Part shown: positions 1,384 through 9,278 of the stretch, piece by piece
How the letters are laid out: each line of letters starts with the position of its first letter
Numbering within the stretch: the stretch's first letter is position 1
Virus record (IMG/VR): IMGVR_UViG_3300033069_000781
Coordinates: 32,001 to 96,000 of that record
Strand: one strand, 5' to 3'
Origin: a virus
Lineage: Duplodnaviria > Caudoviricetes
Length of the DNA stretch: 64,000 bases
The notes under the pieces: model-generated
Seen by the model: only the letters and a program-made list of their open reading frames with translations
Databases searched by the model: none
Told to the model about the DNA's origin: nothing
Program-made: the position numbers and the translations under genes

Positions 1384-1558
1384 ATCCAAACTAACTGAAA
1401 GCGAACTAGAAGCTAAAGATAAAGCCTTTATGGCCCACTTAGAGTATGCCTCAAAGATAGTTCAGTCATGGCCTGCATGGAAACAGGAGATATTAGGCGG
1501 TAAAGCAACAATAAGACAGAATGAAACAGATAAACATCAATATAAGCTCTGGGAGTAA
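1358..1558 (+). CDS. small protein with V-x-SWP-x-WK motif
   Basis: GTG start 5 nt after GGAGGT; contains AFMAHLEYASKIVQSWPAWKQEILGGKA. Confidence 0.6.
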   Translation: MEKQNPVPRSKLTESELEAKDKAFMAHLEYASKIVQSWPAWKQEILGGKATIRQNETDKHQYKLWE

Positions 1559-4093
1559 TGAAGAAGAATACATAGATCCAGATAATATCGAAATTAGTAT
1601 AAATGGTAGAACAGTTAAGGCCGAATTACCCGATCTAGGTGATTCACTAGATCAAAGTAGCACTGATAGTGATTATATTAGCATTCGTGAGCTTCTCGAT
1701 AATCTTCCAAATGAGTCAATAAAACTACCTGCTGTAGATAATAAAGAAGCCATAGTCCTAGCTCCTCCTATTGGCGGAATAATTTACAGAGGTTCCCAGT
1801 TAATGGATATGCCTCTAGCTAAGTTTGTTGATTTGGTTCTATATAATCAAATCAACTTACCACTAGATGAGAAGTCCACGGAAATAGTTAAGTTTATTCC
1901 GGGGCATACTGTGGCTGGAACAATTGGGCCCTCTAGTCAGTGTGATGTACTAGTTCTAGGTAAGATGCCTAACACCCAGGAATCAAACTATGGGCAATTT
2001 CATCCAGATAAGATAGGGAATGTATGGAAGCCTTATCTCAAGGCTAAAGGGCTCAATATTGATAATTGGTTCCTTTACTGTGTTGTACCATTTAAGGTAC
2101 CGGACCATTTAGCTGGTAAAGGTGCCCTAAAGCAATGCTATCTTAATGAGACCTACTGCTTACTCAGTGAGGTCTACGCCCGAGTCAAGCCTAAGTTTGT
2201 GTTATGCTTCGGTGCTGATGCTCTAACTGCTCTCTATAAACTCTTTGACGCCAAGAAGTATAAGTCAATTAAGTTCACTAACTCTAGGGGATCAGTCATA
2301 ACCTTACCGGATGGTACCAAGGTTATTTGCTGTAACTCACCTGGTATGATCCTCAAGGATCCAAACCAAACCGAGGAGTTCAATAAAGATTTAGACCTAC
2401 TAGTTGAAGTAATCGGGACCGGGGGAACCTCGGAACGTAGGCTTAGTTGTGGTTATCAGCTCATAGATACCTGGGAGAAATTAGAGACCTATGTATATGC
2501 AGAGCAGAAGTTTCAGTCCCAAGGTAAACACAAGAAGTACTCATTGGATATGGAATGGGGCGCTAACGAAACCCTAAGAACAATTCAATTAGCTACCTCT
2601 AATGACTATGCTACTGTTATTCACTTAAGTAGCGTAAACTTAGAACCAACCGAGCTAGGTAAAGACTTATCCAATGTATTGCGTATACTGGGATTAATAC
2701 TTAAACCCAAGGGAATTGGTATTGTTGGGCATAACGTTAGGGGAGATATCAAGATCTTGAGACGTATGGGTCTCGATCTAATGCCTAACTTCATCGATGA
2801 TGGTTTTGACACCATGATCTCGTATCACCTAATACCTGGCAATGAGACCTTAGATAAGCAATTAGAGTTAGTGGCTATCAAGATGCTTAATGTCGGCAGA
2901 TACGATAAGCCATTAAGGGATTGGCTTGCCCAGTCCGGTATGTCAGAGAAGGATAAGGAACTTCTAGGTTATGGCACTATTCCAGATGAGATCTTGATTC
3001 CATATGGTGCCATGGATGCTTGTGTTTCCTATGAGCTCTATGAAGTAATCAGTAAAGAGCTACCTAAGTATCCCAAGCTTGAAGAGCTTTATTACAAATA
3101 TCAACATGTCCTGAATCTACCCATCCTAGAGATGGAAGAGGGTGGCATGCTGATAGATCAGTTAAGACTCAAGGATCTCACCAGACTCTTCCAGACCAAG
3201 GTAGCTGAACTACTCCTAGAGTTGCAACGTAAGGTTAACTGGGAAGCCAGAACTGTTATAGAAGAGAAGACAGTCCGCAATAAGACTAAGACTGTCGCGG
3301 TCTCCTATGATGGGTTTAATCCAGATAGCCCCGATCAACTCAAAGAGATCTTGTTCGGTATGTTTAAGGAGAAGAAGGGTGTTATTACCCGCAAGGCTCC
3401 GCAGGATGCATTAATCCTTAATCTAGTTCCAGTGAAGGCTACCGATGATACGCCATGGATGGATGTAATGGCCAAAGGTAAACAGGCCTCTTATAGCCCA
3501 TCAACGGATTCTGAGTCCCTAGGCATCCTCTCATCAGAACATCCATTAGCTAAAGATATACAGAGATATAAGTTTGTATCGCAGATCACTAAGAACTTCT
3601 TGAGGCCCTTTGAGGAATTGCCCGATGGTACCACTGTTTATGATAGTGGACTAGGTGGTTCAATTGGCCCAGATGGTAGATCTAGGACTAGCTTTAGAAC
3701 CGTACTAGAGACGGGTAGGTACTCTACATCCCCCAACTTCAATAACCTACCTAAGAAGCAAGAGAAAGAACTACAGGCTCTATTTACTAGTAATGGAGTA
3801 GTGAATCCTGGACTCAAATCAATTAAATCAGTATTCATTGCTGATCCCGGTTGGGTCTTTATCGAGAGCGATTATAACCAAGCAGAATTGTGGACACTAG
3901 CGTACGTTTCCAGGGATAAACAGTTCTTAACTGCACTGACTAGCTCAGATTTACACACCTATAATCTACAGAGAATGTTCTCTACTAAGCTATATAATGG
4001 TAAACCTATTAGCGAGTACACTGTAGACGAATTAAATAAAATAAGAAAACAAGTCAGTGAAATAGAAAGCCTTAGAGTAGCCAGCAAGTCGGT
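1521..4093 (+). CDS. polA: Family A DNA polymerase, exon 1 (degenerate UDG-like domain, 3'-5' exonuclease, polymerase N-part)
   Basis: UDG family 4-like segment (VLVLGKMP...KPKFVLCFGADA...RG); ExoI SLDMEW, ExoII GHNVRGD, ExoIII YGAMDA; TGRYSTSPNFNNLP; motif A ESDYNQAEL; DLH. Breaks in motif B at RVASKSV. Confidence 0.92.
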
Positions 4094-4117
4094 AAAATAA
4101 GCCAAATAATTTCAATT

Positions 4118-4126
4118 TGCTATAAT
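4118..4126 (+). promoter_or_regulatory. extended -10 promoter (TGcTATAAT) for the intron endonuclease
   Basis: TGCTATAAT ends 8 nt before ATG 4135; an identical element lies at 32592-32600. Confidence 0.5.
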
Positions 4127-4134
4127 AGAGTTAT

Positions 4135-5118
4135 ATGCAACGGGCATGTGCCATTTGTTCTACTTTATTCGAAGTTTACCACTACACCAATAAGTGCTGT
4201 AGTGATTCCTGTAAGGAGCTATATAGATTAAAGCGTCATAGCTTTAACTGTATAACATGTAATAAAGAGTTTACAGGATCATGTAAGATTCGAAAGTACT
4301 GCAGCCGTGATTGTGCCAATAGTGCCCCAACCCGTATTATTCCTGAGCCTAAGATAGTTCTAGTTTGTATTGATTGTAAATCTGCGATTAAGGCAAAGGT
4401 ATACCGTAAGGTTAAGCGTTGCGCAGCTTGCAGATATAAAATCAAAGGTATTAAAGAGAAGCTTAGGTACAAGAAACTACCAAAGTATGCTAGGAGACCC
4501 AAGTATACTTGTGTGGTATGTAATGAGATCTTTAAATCTGATCGATTGCAGTTCCGTAGGCCTCAATGCAAGGAATGCAGACGTAAACGATCTTATCGAA
4601 ATCAATTAAATCGAGGAAGAATAAAGAATCCAGGAGTTGGTGTAGGCGGTAATCCTCCTACACACGGTCACCTCAGAGGCCCGGCACATCCTAGATACAA
4701 TCCTGACTCTCCTTATCACGGTAAGGATGTTAAGGGATACACTAAGGCATATAGAAAGAAGTGCTTTAAGTGTTACCCAAAGAAATGTGTTGTTTGTAGT
4801 AAAACAAAGCACATTCAGGTACATCACATAAACGCAGTTCGAGATGATTGCAGACCTACTAATCTTGTGCCTTTATGTAGAAAGTGTCATGGCAAAGTAC
4901 ACAGAGGTAAGCCCAGAAAGCCAGAAGATTACATTAATAATCTGAAAGCTATGTGGCCAGCATACGATTCGAAAATAGCAGAAATTGAAATGAGATGCCG
5001 ACTTAAAATTGCGGAAACGAACGAGAAACTCTCACGAATATTAGAGACAACTCGATCTGAAGTATCTCCGTCACAAGAGTTACAGGTGCAGAGCATAGGA
5101 ACTGAAACTCTTACATAA
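4135..5118 (+). CDS. intron-encoded HNH homing endonuclease with multiple Zn-finger repeats
   Basis: CVVC...VHHINAVRDDCRPTNLVPLCRKCHGKVH HNH motif; repeated CxxC...CSxxC units; very basic. Confidence 0.9.
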   Translation: MQRACAICSTLFEVYHYTNKCCSDSCKELYRLKRHSFNCITCNKEFTGSCKIRKYCSRDCANSAPTRIIPEPKIVLVCIDCKSAIKAKVYRKVKRCAACRYKIKGIKEKLRYKKLPKYARRPKYTCVVCNEIFKSDRLQFRRPQCKECRRKRSYRNQLNRGRIKNPGVGVGGNPPTHGHLRGPAHPRYNPDSPYHGKDVKGYTKAYRKKCFKCYPKKCVVCSKTKHIQVHHINAVRDDCRPTNLVPLCRKCHGKVHRGKPRKPEDYINNLKAMWPAYDSKIAEIEMRCRLKIAETNEKLSRILETTRSEVSPSQELQVQSIGTETLT

Positions 5119-5244
5119 GAGAATATAATGTTCCCACGAGGCCGCGACAATTGTTCATTCATATGAATCATTGAAAATTTATGCCCAACTTACTAGGTGA
5201 CTAGTAGAAGCTTTTGATAAAAAACTAAAGCGAAAAGAAACAAG

Positions 5245-5842
5245 GTCCTTTGGCATTCCGTATAGCAGAGGTGCGGCGGCTATTGCCCGCGAGATAAAAA
5301 AAGAAGGAGTAACAGTTGATCCAAACGAAGTTAAAGAATGGATCGAGGCCTTCTATACAAACTACCCAGACGTCGCGATCTATCTACAGAACTGTAAAGA
5401 TGCTGTAACTGATCCTGGCTATCTACAGAATCCCTGGGGCAGATATAGATACTTCCCAGTTAGCCAGGATAACGGAGTAATTGCCGGATTCCAGAGAGAG
5501 GCCCTGAACTTCAATATTCAGTCCACAGTTGCAGATACATTAACTGCTGCTTTAATTAACTTCTATTACTACAGACAGATTAGGCCTGAGATTGAGTTCA
5601 AACTATGTCTCTCTAATCATGACGCAATTATCGTGCAATGCCCAGCTAAACATGTCAAAGTTATGTGTGAGGAAGTGATTCCGTTCTGCATGTGTGAGGC
5701 TTGCGAAGTACCAGGTATTGGGTTAAAATATACACTTGGCGAGTTCGATGTATCAACTCGTTGGGGTGAGCATACCACACCAGAAGAACTACTAGCCCTT
5801 GGGGTTGATAGGAAATATTGTGGATTCAAAGAGAAAAAGTGA
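5245..5842 (+). CDS. polA: Family A DNA polymerase, exon 2 (missed by the ORF track)
   Basis: Reads SFGIPYSRGAAAIA...YPDV...GYLQNPWGRYRYF...REALNFNIQSTVAD...motif C SNHDAII to TGA 5842; spliced protein about 1056 aa. Confidence 0.92.
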
Positions 5843-7617: not shown

Positions 7618-8937
7618 ATGGCTAAGAAAGCTAAAACAGAGATAGAGACAAATTCAAGTTCTGAAGCTTCCTTTTTCTCCCTCGCCAATAATTCCACAGA
7701 GTCTACTACTGAATCTACTGTTCCACAAAAGCCCACATCTACACCAGCCCCCTTCTTCACTAAGCTCCTAGATGCTAATAGAAAGAAGCATGGATCTAAA
7801 ACATTGATGGTTGGGTCGGAACAGAGAGTAATTGGTTTAGAGCCCTATAGTATTGCATTACAGTACATAATGGACTTGGAGGTTGTACCCCTCCAAGCCA
7901 TTATTAACATTGCTGGCGAAGAGAAGACCTATAAGACATCTATTGGTCTAGAGTTCTGTAAGATGTTCTTAGATCTACAACCCGTGCAAGGTATAGCAGT
8001 AGTGAATAATACTGAAGGTAAATGGTCACCCAGTAAGTCTAGATCAATGCTGGGCCATCACAACGATGTACTACAGGTAATCCAGAACAAGTCAGTAGAG
8101 GAATGGCAGGCTTCCGCTACATCTAACCTTCTACTAATGCAGGAGATAGTTGATAAGAAGAAAGATGCTATAGCTAAGAAGGCTAAAACTTCTGAGTATA
8201 AGGACATGGTTATTCCACCAATGATTATCATGGTGGATTCATTGACTGGTTCTCAATCCGATAAGATCGTTGAGACCGTACAGACCGAGGGCTTCGGATC
8301 CAAGACCTTCCAGGACCGTGCCTTGATTAATCATCAATTCTTCTCAACCTGGGGTTCTAATCTAATCGGAATGCCAGTAACAATTGTTATCACCAATCAT
8401 TTAAAGATTAAACTAGATGGTCAGCCAGGTATTAAGCAATATACCACTAGTGGTGGATCGGGGCCCAGCTTTATGTGTTCCATGGAGATTAGGGTCAAGA
8501 GAATCGGTGAGATCGATAAGACTTACATAGAGGGCGCTAAGCTTCTATGGAAGATGCATCACAATAGTCTAGGTAGGGATAAGAGACAGATCGAAGTCCA
8601 CTATATGGAAGGCTATGATGCAGAGGATAACCAGAAGGCCTACTTTGATTGGGATTCCACTCTAATCATGTGTCTTCTGGAGCGTCTAGAGGAATCAGCT
8701 TATAAGGACAGAATACTAGGAGTCCTAGGGGAATTCAATGAGTATCCCAAGGCTGGCTTTGGTAAGGTCTATAGTTGCGGCAGATTGGGTATAGATAAGG
8801 ATAAGGCTATAGATGAGGGAGTGGGAGCCACTGAGTTGGGCCGCATGTTGCAGACCGATCCAGTCATCCGGGAAGAATTAAAGGCTGCACTAAGAATACA
8901 GAAGGCAACTAAATGGACGCCTGATATCGAGATGTAG
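7618..8937 (+). CDS. RecA/UvsX-like recombinase
   Basis: Walker A IAGEEKTYKTS, NTEG, Walker B IIMVDSL, ITNH, TTSGG...F...RV(K)R RecA signature order. Confidence 0.85.
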   Translation: MAKKAKTEIETNSSSEASFFSLANNSTESTTESTVPQKPTSTPAPFFTKLLDANRKKHGSKTLMVGSEQRVIGLEPYSIALQYIMDLEVVPLQAIINIAGEEKTYKTSIGLEFCKMFLDLQPVQGIAVVNNTEGKWSPSKSRSMLGHHNDVLQVIQNKSVEEWQASATSNLLLMQEIVDKKKDAIAKKAKTSEYKDMVIPPMIIMVDSLTGSQSDKIVETVQTEGFGSKTFQDRALINHQFFSTWGSNLIGMPVTIVITNHLKIKLDGQPGIKQYTTSGGSGPSFMCSMEIRVKRIGEIDKTYIEGAKLLWKMHHNSLGRDKRQIEVHYMEGYDAEDNQKAYFDWDSTLIMCLLERLEESAYKDRILGVLGEFNEYPKAGFGKVYSCGRLGIDKDKAIDEGVGATELGRMLQTDPVIREELKAALRIQKATKWTPDIEM

Positions 8938-8939
8938 AT

Positions 8940-9278
8940 ATGACAAGAGCAGAAGCGATCGCAAATGTGAATAAAGAGGTCACGGTTTGGAATAGCCGTG
9001 ACCTCTTATACGAATTAGCCGTAATAACTGAATATAGGGCTGATGAGAATAGCTGTGAAGTAGAATTAGTCAGGGACGGTAGAGAACTAGTACTAACCCT
9101 TAACAATCTACACCTAGCTTCTCCGGAAGAGTTATCAGTTGATCTAGTCTCTGATGTCTCAGTGGAGACAGTGGAACTTCCCGATAACTTCGATAAAATC
9201 GATAGCGATGATTTTGATAGTACTACATGGGATGGGTTCTCGATGGACACAGAGGAAGACGAGGTAGATGCAGATTAG
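8940..9278 (+). CDS. hypothetical protein, small beta domain plus acidic tail
   Basis: 112 aa, tightly packed in the operon; D/E-rich C-terminus. Confidence 0.7.
   Translation: MTRAEAIANVNKEVTVWNSRDLLYELAVITEYRADENSCEVELVRDGRELVLTLNNLHLASPEELSVDLVSDVSVETVELPDNFDKIDSDDFDSTTWDGFSMDTEEDEVDAD

Follow-up and report, generated by a model that had tools for sequence, protein, structure and literature searches.

The window analysed here is a 64,000-nt stretch of phage DNA, bases 32001-96000 of an IMG/VR virus record that is 119 kb long and estimated to be 47% complete. Close to its 5' end, three open reading frames (ORFs) are arranged head to tail on the plus strand: the first at 1521-4100 (859 amino acids), the second at 4135-5118 (327 amino acids), and a third frame that stays open from 5201 to 5842. 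The outer two encode the parts of a family A DNA polymerase and the middle one an HNH homing endonuclease. The segment 4094-5244 that separates the polymerase parts is very probably a mobile group I intron inserted in codon 760 of the polymerase O-helix, with the HNH gene located in the loop of its P1 helix (Table 1).

Table 1. Predicted features of the interrupted polymerase gene. Positions are those of the window; R1 and R2 are the covariance models described in the text.
Feature	Position	Strand	Details
Polymerase exon 1	1521..4093	+	UDG-like domain, 3'-5' exonuclease, polymerase domain up to K758-S-V(760) of the O-helix
P1 5' strand	4086..4093	+	AAGUCGGU; 5' splice site after U4093
Group I intron	4094..5244	+	1151 nt; homologue alignments require precise excision; R1 and R2 matches
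HNH homing-endonuclease ORF	4135..5118	+	327 aa; in P1 loop
Internal guide sequence (P1 3' strand)	4997..5004	+	GCCGACUU
Ribozyme core	5005..5209	+	R1 full-length match
P3	5009-5014 / 5142-5147	+	R1, RNAfold
P4	5022-5025 / 5051-5054	+	R1, RNAfold
P5	5029-5032 / 5043-5046	+	R1, RNAfold
P6	5056-5059 / 5083-5086	+	R1
P6a	5063-5068 / 5077-5082	+	R1, RNAfold
P7	5093-5097 (GCAUA) / 5180-5184 (UAUGC)	+	possible extra G5091-C5185 with A5092 bulged
P7.1	5098-5102 / 5130-5134	+	R1, RNAfold
Inner stem of P7.1	5108-5112 / 5117-5121	+	carries HNH stop codon
P8	5148-5151 / 5170-5173	+	R1, RNAfold
P9	5189-5196 / 5201-5207	+	GUGA loop at 5197-5200
P9.1	5210-5216 / 5225-5231	+	AUAAAAAA loop; RNAfold
P9.1 hairpin and 3' tail	5210..5244	+	terminal G5244; R2 match
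Polymerase exon 2	5245..5842	+	remainder of motif B (S-F-G-I-P-Y), N-F-N-I-Q-S motif, motif C

The product of the first ORF matches the Pfam profiles UDG and DNA_pol_A_exo1 as well as positions 13-198 of DNA_pol_A, and positions 215-358 of the latter profile are covered by exon 2 (5246-5839), where motif C (H-D) is found at about 5609-5620. The actual start codon of exon 1 may lie 3' of 1521. At its other end, the exon-1 frame is closed by a stop codon at 4098-4100, 5 nt inside the intron. Joining 4093 to 5245, as proposed in the first-pass annotation for what had appeared as a truncated polymerase, restores the sequence ...R-V-A-S-K-S-V|S-F-G-I-P-Y-S-R-G... and yields a spliced product of 2573 + 595 nt = 3168 nt, that is, 1056 codons. 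Family A polymerases show the spacing R-x3-K-x3-F-x3-Y in their O-helix (R754, K758, F762 and Y766 in E. coli Pol I), and since the join restores it, the break falls after the second base of codon 760 in the E. coli Pol I numbering. The joined frame encodes a single polypeptide with motifs A, B and C, motif B becoming whole only when the exons are joined. Judging by its sequence, the enzyme is a UDG-fused family A DNA polymerase of a large uncultured phage.

The junction was examined by tblastn of 49 metagenomic polymerase relatives, obtained in a protein-collection search, against the window. The uninterrupted protein P0001 (973 amino acids, 55-64% identical) aligns from residue 6 to 777 with 1767-4094 and from residue 778 to 973 with 5246-5833, with nothing missing. 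Two more intron-less homologues join at the same place, P0012 at residues 765/766 and P0010, the sequence of which across the site is ...LRIAAKSVNFGIPYGRGAG..., at residues 764/765. In all three, the alignment is ungapped across 4094|5246, which is equivalent to a join at 4093|5245, precisely the predicted site. The 1151 nt of 4094-5244 would be an insertion within motif B that is excised exactly, giving the RNA junction AAGUCGGU|GUCCUUUGG.

The three separate ORFs, the failure of Rfam to detect an intron, and the existence of phage split genes with intervening endonucleases (PMC2677866) are all compatible with a fractured gene, in which two separate polymerase polypeptides assemble, a free-standing HNH gene lies between their genes, and no RNA splicing is involved. 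We give this explanation hardly any weight. The exon-2 frame follows a stop codon at 5198-5200 and contains no ATG, GTG or TTG until 5633; because motif C precedes this first possible start codon, exon 2 is unable to yield a useful protein alone, and therefore the joining of the two parts has to take place in the RNA. Furthermore, the break falls within a codon, inside the O-helix, exon 2 is directly preceded by a complete group I core and its terminal G, and an 8-bp guide pairs with the end of exon 1. Two separately translated halves can be considered, from these reading frames, excluded for practical purposes. An intein was considered as well and is ruled out by the stops in the polymerase frame at 4098-4100 and 5198-5200.

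Covariance models, which had been suggested as a check on the intron, gave a divided answer: the Rfam model RF00028 does not match, whereas two models specific to one intron family, R1 and R2, do. This family was collected with the pattern AGAGCATAGG-N24-54-CCACGAG, which is present in more than 94 viral contigs; downstream of the pattern, most members contain UAUGCC, a short P9 hairpin, often with a GNRA loop, another hairpin looped by GAUAAAAAG, and a tail of the form GAUAACA...G. The models were built from 21 compact family members, with the window left out of the alignment, for which RNAalifold predicts 44 pairs, 39 of them with compensatory changes. R1 (193 positions) has a single match in the window, at 5005-5209, which is full length and scores 117.8 bits (E 6.5e-31), within the range of the training set (116.6-157.9 bits) and above one training member only, L100. 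The 3'-end model R2 matches full length at 5174-5244 (54.2 bits, E 1.9e-10), its last base being G5244. Across the family, compensatory double changes are found in 35 of the 38 model pairs, and 92.4% of the cells in the model-based alignment are paired, compared with 36-41% when the partners are slid. In the window, 32 of the 38 R1 pairs form, and RNAfold applied to 4997-5244 alone recovers P3, P4, P5, P6a, P7.1, P8, P9 and P9.1.

A connection between the family and RF00028 is provided by L032, at 59.5 and 68.1 bits, and by the second intron of the metagenomic locus L018 (32.8 bits), and R1 also detects an independent RF00028-positive intron, the first one of L018. When 15 family loci were scanned with RF00028 at the gathering score, the family member remained below the cut-off, and the matches at these loci were to other nearby introns. 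At L062, L083, L100, L120 and L032, the family intron often has other group I introns as neighbours, no more than a few hundred bases away; there are two to three per locus, some of them RF00028-positive, and the genes are heavily invaded.

In the predicted fold, P7, the G-binding site, crosses P3 as a pseudoknot, P2 is missing, and a single extended hairpin consisting of P7.1 and its inner stem lies between P7 and P3'. The splice sites are U4093|A4094 and G5244|G5245, with G5244 as the last base of the intron. P3, the GNRA-capped P9 and the terminal G are all found as first described. The P7 reported at that stage as a variant, GCATA/TATGC in the DNA, is indeed present, but it is the normal P7 of the large phage intron family described above. 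Introns of subgroup IA2 lack P2 and have separate P7.1 and P7.2 hairpins joined by G-U-A (PMC3428280). The modelled structure, with no P2 and a P7.1 extension between P7 and P3', suggests that the window intron is IA-like.

The U·G pair of P1 noted earlier is retained, with its partner reassigned: U4093 at the splice site most likely pairs with G4997, some 900 nt downstream, and not with a G close to the start of the intron. In this assignment, P1 forms between AAGUCGGU at the end of exon 1 and the guide GCCGACUU over 8 bp, including the U4093·G4997 wobble. About 0.94 occurrences of the guide 8-mer would be expected over the window, both strands counted; it ends 1 nt before the R1 match and lies directly 5' of AAAA-P3, as does the guide of the second intron of L018, the splice sites of which are fixed by protein alignment. 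A local P1 (GGU x GCC at 4101-4103) comprises 3 bp only and was dropped for the 8-bp long-range helix. Because the guide lies about 900 nt downstream of the splice site, the HNH gene fills the whole P1 loop.

Comparison of the 4.3-kb region with 50,697 phage records by blastn produced no match, and a search of viral contigs with exon 2 alone produced no related locus. A profile search with the polymerase alignment retrieved only distant polymerases from viral contigs and one close locus, L018, from metagenomes. The polymerase of another locus, L006, is 24% identical to that of the window and is interrupted after F-G (codon 763) by a composite of an HNH gene and a ribozyme (L006:8311-9150). This composite encompasses an HNH homologue at 8358-9002, 51% identical to the homologue P0063, a core at 8943-9120 (R1, 112.4 bits) and a 3' end recognized by R2 (37.5 bits). 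The L006 guide, GCCGAAAU (8935-8942), ends one base before the R1 match and pairs with its own exon end, AUUUCGGU. Compared with the P1 of the window, positions -6 and -7 are changed on both strands, which makes two compensatory pairs, and P7 is GCGUA/UACGC instead of GCAUA/UAUGC, where the third pair, A-U, has become G-C, again a compensatory change. In both L006 and the window, the exon finishes in UCGGU at the splice site despite a 10-nt offset between the two sites, a hint that the guide has a part in site choice, for example, via reverse splicing or ectopic homing.

The L018 polymerase (P0004, 49% identical) contains two ORF-less group I introns. Intron 1 (8261-8520; RF00028, 99.1 bits) is located in codon Y766, 17 nt downstream of the site occupied in the window. 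Intron 2 (8781-9046) is located at N-F-P|I-Q-S, which corresponds to 5515|5516 of the window, and comes from the ribozyme family of the window intron, the 3' part of which is homologous to it: both contain GGUGCAGAGCAUAGG, then 34 nt, then CCCACGAG. The insertion sites in this polymerase clade include codon 760 in the window, the position after codon 763 in L006 and, probably, in P0005 and P0011, and codon 766 in L018 and, probably, in P0007. Further interruptions are found at N-F-x|I-Q (L018 intron 2, P0009 and P0014) and farther downstream (P0010), so that this polymerase clade is heavily invaded. Separately, P0002, P0016 and P0018 contain large in-frame insertions of about 110-290 amino acids, at places corresponding to about 3242-3312 and 3737-3878 of the window, which itself lacks them; these insertions may be inteins or other in-frame elements.

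The structural part of the initial interpretation, a group I intron in motif B with an HNH ORF that runs into the core, is borne out by the exact junction, the two covariance models, the covariation in the family and the compensatory changes in L006. Several observations weigh against it. Rfam reports no group I match over 3900-5500, either at the gathering threshold or at E<=10, and RF00028 finds nothing over the whole 119-kb record even when relaxed to E<=1-10, so that the intron falls outside the membership defined by the gathering score. Six of the 38 model pairs are absent from the window fold, and the z-score of the minimum free energy of the core is modest (-1.47). P1 has to close over a 903-nt loop, and the candidate P10 (4994-4996 x 5245-5247) consists of only 3 bp. 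The R1 training set was gathered with a 17-nt pattern taken from the window, and those bases match by construction; the helices of R1 and its remaining ~175 positions are independent of the collecting pattern. Finally, we infer the splicing of the polymerase RNA from sequence and models.

Some of the same features could also indicate a group I intron that no longer splices by itself, either requiring a protein cofactor or maturase or residing in a decaying pseudogene of a defective genome: only 32 of the 38 model pairs form, the R1 score of 117.8 bits exceeds that of L100 alone, P10 is weak, P1 is long-range, and the record is estimated to be only 47% complete. However, the catalytic core retains all its helices, and the G-binding P7, the 8-bp P1 and the terminal G are likewise intact. 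Each exon keeps an open, conserved frame (55-64% identical to P0001), and the catalytic residues of the HNH protein are in place. These features make loss of self-splicing very unlikely. Under the interpretation as a mobile intron, the phage polymerase should be annotated as one gene and not as a truncated gene with fragments, and the same is likely to apply to several of its metagenomic relatives. Since the general group I model of Rfam misses this intron family, viral metagenomes probably contain more split 'pseudogenes' of this kind than have been called.

The ORF inside the intron starts 41 nt from the intron 5' end and stops at 5118, as originally reported, and its product is identified as an HNH endonuclease by comparison with PHROG. 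PHROG families 1271, 8048 and 119, annotated as 'HNH endonuclease', match with E-values from 3e-13 to 1e-7, the best match being PHROG 1271 (E 3.4e-13), and 13 families besides 1271 that were matched are also annotated as HNH endonucleases. The Pfam profiles HNH (20.3, cut-off 21.4) and HNH_3 (21.4, cut-off 24.8) both fall just short. The protein consists of N-terminal CxxC...C(S)xxC zinc-ribbon repeats, the HNH motif at about residues 218-256, and a ribozyme-encoded C-terminal tail. A HMMER scan yielded 1003 HNH relatives, and in the alignment of the best of these, H230, H231, N243, H252, H256 and the Cys columns are invariant. A word-based homologue search with the HNH protein found only the protein itself, and a PDB sequence search with it found no match. 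All PHROG matches end at or before residue 273 of 327, and the tail lies outside the HNH profiles.

The overlap of this ORF with the ribozyme core, first put at about 110 nt, spans 5005-5118, or 114 nt, and amounts to 122 nt when the guide is included (4997-5118). The ORF extends across the guide, P3, P4, P5, P6 and P6a, takes in the 5' strand of P7, and terminates within P7.1, with the UAA stop codon (5116-5118) located in the inner stem-loop. The tail that follows the HNH domain is conserved in the best homologues as (C)RxKIAE(L)SG...TRTEG...SQGQSI...(I)TPPRGR, and in the L006 DNA the tail peptides are the in-frame translation of the ribozyme. There, KIAELSG is encoded by AAAAUUGCGGAAUUAAGCGGG (AAAA-P3 into P4) and TRTEG by ACCCGAACCGAAGG (P4'/P6); by the L006 register, QGQSI corresponds to CAGGGGCAGAGCAUA (J6/7-P7), and PPRG corresponds to CCCCACGAGG. 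Among the 150 cluster representatives listed, 25 contain at least two of the tail motifs and 45 contain at least one. The depth at which the ORF stops varies within one frame, from P6a in L006 to P7.1 in the window and beyond P3' in the homologues P0060 and P0063. These comparisons indicate that the overlap is common to the lineage and old, and that its depth is variable. The HNH gene in the P1 loop has travelled along with its ribozyme in this lineage.

Overlap between an endonuclease ORF and the intron core is by itself a documented phenomenon. In the table that Edgell, Chalamcharla and Belfort give with their 'core creep' hypothesis, the overlaps are 0-81 nt and some of the ORFs are located in P1 (PMC3073962), and such an overlap is also depicted in Fig. 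2b of PMC3984707. Stops at different core depths within one frame are the pattern that core creep predicts (PMC3073962), and the varied stop depth in this lineage provides a natural series for testing core creep and the conflict between translation and splicing.

In the mechanism that we propose, the primary transcript would be spliced at the two predicted sites, with the guide at 4997-5004 recognizing the 5' splice site across about 900 nt, and would give rise to a polymerase of up to 1056 amino acids. The HNH enzyme would nick or cut intron-less polymerase alleles during co-infection and in this way spread the intron. A ribosome on the last 40 codons of the HNH gene would have to unwind P1 and P3-P7, the 5' half of the core, and therefore translation of the HNH gene and splicing would be mutually exclusive on one RNA at one time. 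An in-frame stop just inside the intron, like that at 4098-4100, is a common device that keeps exon ribosomes out (PMC3984707, PMC3073962).

The first-pass annotation also suggested that translation of the endonuclease gates polymerase production. This idea is already established for the td intron of T4 and its endonuclease I-TevI, and competition between HNH translation and splicing in the window is plausible by likeness to that precedent. According to the account of Gibb & Edgell 2010 given in PMC3073962, untimely translation of I-TevI impairs splicing in experiments. T4 avoids the conflict by means of a promoter that is internal and late and by sequestering the ribosome-binding site. It appears unlikely, however, that the long, frame-conserved overlap in the window is a working switch, whereby the pre-mRNA either is spliced, for the polymerase, or is translated, for the HNH enzyme, and the polymerase:nuclease ratio is set accordingly. 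The ribozyme-encoded tail, with its KIAE..TRTEG..QGQSI motifs present in many homologues, might possibly have a function of its own, such as binding of its own RNA.

There is only slightly less than an even chance that the polymerase is not gated at all. The intron would then be the same, the nuclease would be produced from a later, intron-internal transcript, as in the case of T4 I-TevI, and the overlap would reflect passive core creep without a regulatory role. This explanation is in line with the extended -10-like sequence TGcTATAAT at 4118-4126, inside the intron and 8 nt before the HNH AUG, which could be the source of a near-leaderless nuclease transcript, with the weak Shine-Dalgarno sequence in the HNH start region, with the different core positions at which homologous ORFs stop in one frame, as expected under core creep (PMC3073962), and with the fact that no HNH family profile reaches the tail. 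Conversely, a sigma-70 consensus scan calls no promoter before the HNH gene, with no -35 element accompanying the sequence at 4118-4126, although this consensus may not be that of the phage, and the hairpin that would occlude the HNH start region is not significant (z -0.78).

HNH-bearing group I introns have been described in the family A polymerases of phages SPO1, SP82, Bastille, PhiI, W31, phiL7 and Pf-WMP3 and many Bastillevirinae (PMC3428280, PMC11878797), and the reported insertion sites are 674, 676 and 881 (PMC3428280). The arrangement found here is well known in kind, its one unusual trait being that the final 122 nt of the nuclease gene double as the front half of the ribozyme. Compared with the described introns, the window is set apart by the O-helix site, the ORF in the P1 loop, the longer overlap and the invisibility to Rfam. 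With codons 760, 763 and 766 occupied in three relatives, the O-helix becomes the fourth region known to host introns in the family A polymerases of phages.

Among named enzymes, the SPO1-type polymerases are closest to that of the window (22-26% identity), and the intron in gene 31 of Bacillus phage SPO1 that encodes I-HmuI (with counterparts in SP82 and Bastille) is, like that of the window, a group I intron with an HNH gene in a UDG-fused family A polymerase. In contrast to the window intron at codon 760 in motif B, it interrupts the RLSS..P motif (site 674, PMC3428280; the site was confirmed here), and its ORF occupies P8, overlapping by 9 nt (PMC3073962, Table 1), compared with the P1 loop and 122 nt. 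R1 has no match in the SPO1 locus, and therefore the SPO1 intron represents a different ribozyme lineage; this null result and the different insertion site rule it out as a candidate for the same lineage and site. The IA2 introns of the T7-like phages PhiI and W31 (I-TslI) and of cyanophage Pf-WMP3 (I-PfoP3I) share with the window the HNH endonuclease, the family A polymerase as host gene, the lack of P2 and P7.1-type extensions, and the Pf-WMP3 ORF contributes to P6a, P6, P7, P7.1 and P7.2 (PMC3428280). In these phages, the ORFs are located in P6a and the insertion sites are 881 and 674, whereas in the window the ORF is in the P1 loop at site 760 and overlaps the guide and P3-P7.1 (122 nt).

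Outside the polymerase genes, T4 td/I-TevI resembles the window intron in that the 3' end of the ORF overlaps core helices and an in-frame stop follows closely after the 5' splice site, but the endonuclease is of the GIY-YIG type and is encoded in P6, with no more than 20 nt of overlap, and the interrupted gene is that for thymidylate synthase. An endonuclease ORF in P1, as in the window, is known from the Synechocystis tRNA-fMet intron (I-Ssp6803I) and the Physarum large-subunit intron (I-PpoI); the former overlaps P1/P2 by 61 nt (PMC3073962, Table 1). Unlike the window, both involve other nuclease families and host genes, and the overlap does not run through P3-P7. The AGAGCAUAGG...CCCACGAG...UAUGCC intron family of Firmicute phages is the same ribozyme family as that of the window, as R1 and R2 score within the family range. 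Its named members include introns in the tape-measure gene of Streptococcus phage phiJH1301-1 and in the terminase genes of Staphylococcus phages and Lactobacillus JCL1032, where the terminase introns lie alongside homing-endonuclease genes. The introns of this family differ from the window intron in their host genes, and many of their ORFs end just 5' of the P4'/P6 strand or are located downstream in P8 instead of the P1 loop; they are too dissimilar to the window for detection by blastn.

Upstream of the polymerase gene, an ORF at 3-947 that is open at the 5' edge of the window encodes 314 amino acids with Cys-rich stretches and has no Pfam match at E<=0.01. Just 5' of the polymerase, two small overlapping ORFs (1171-1383 and 1322-1558) share the motif K-I-V-x-S-W-P-x-W-K-x-E and appear to be paralogous.

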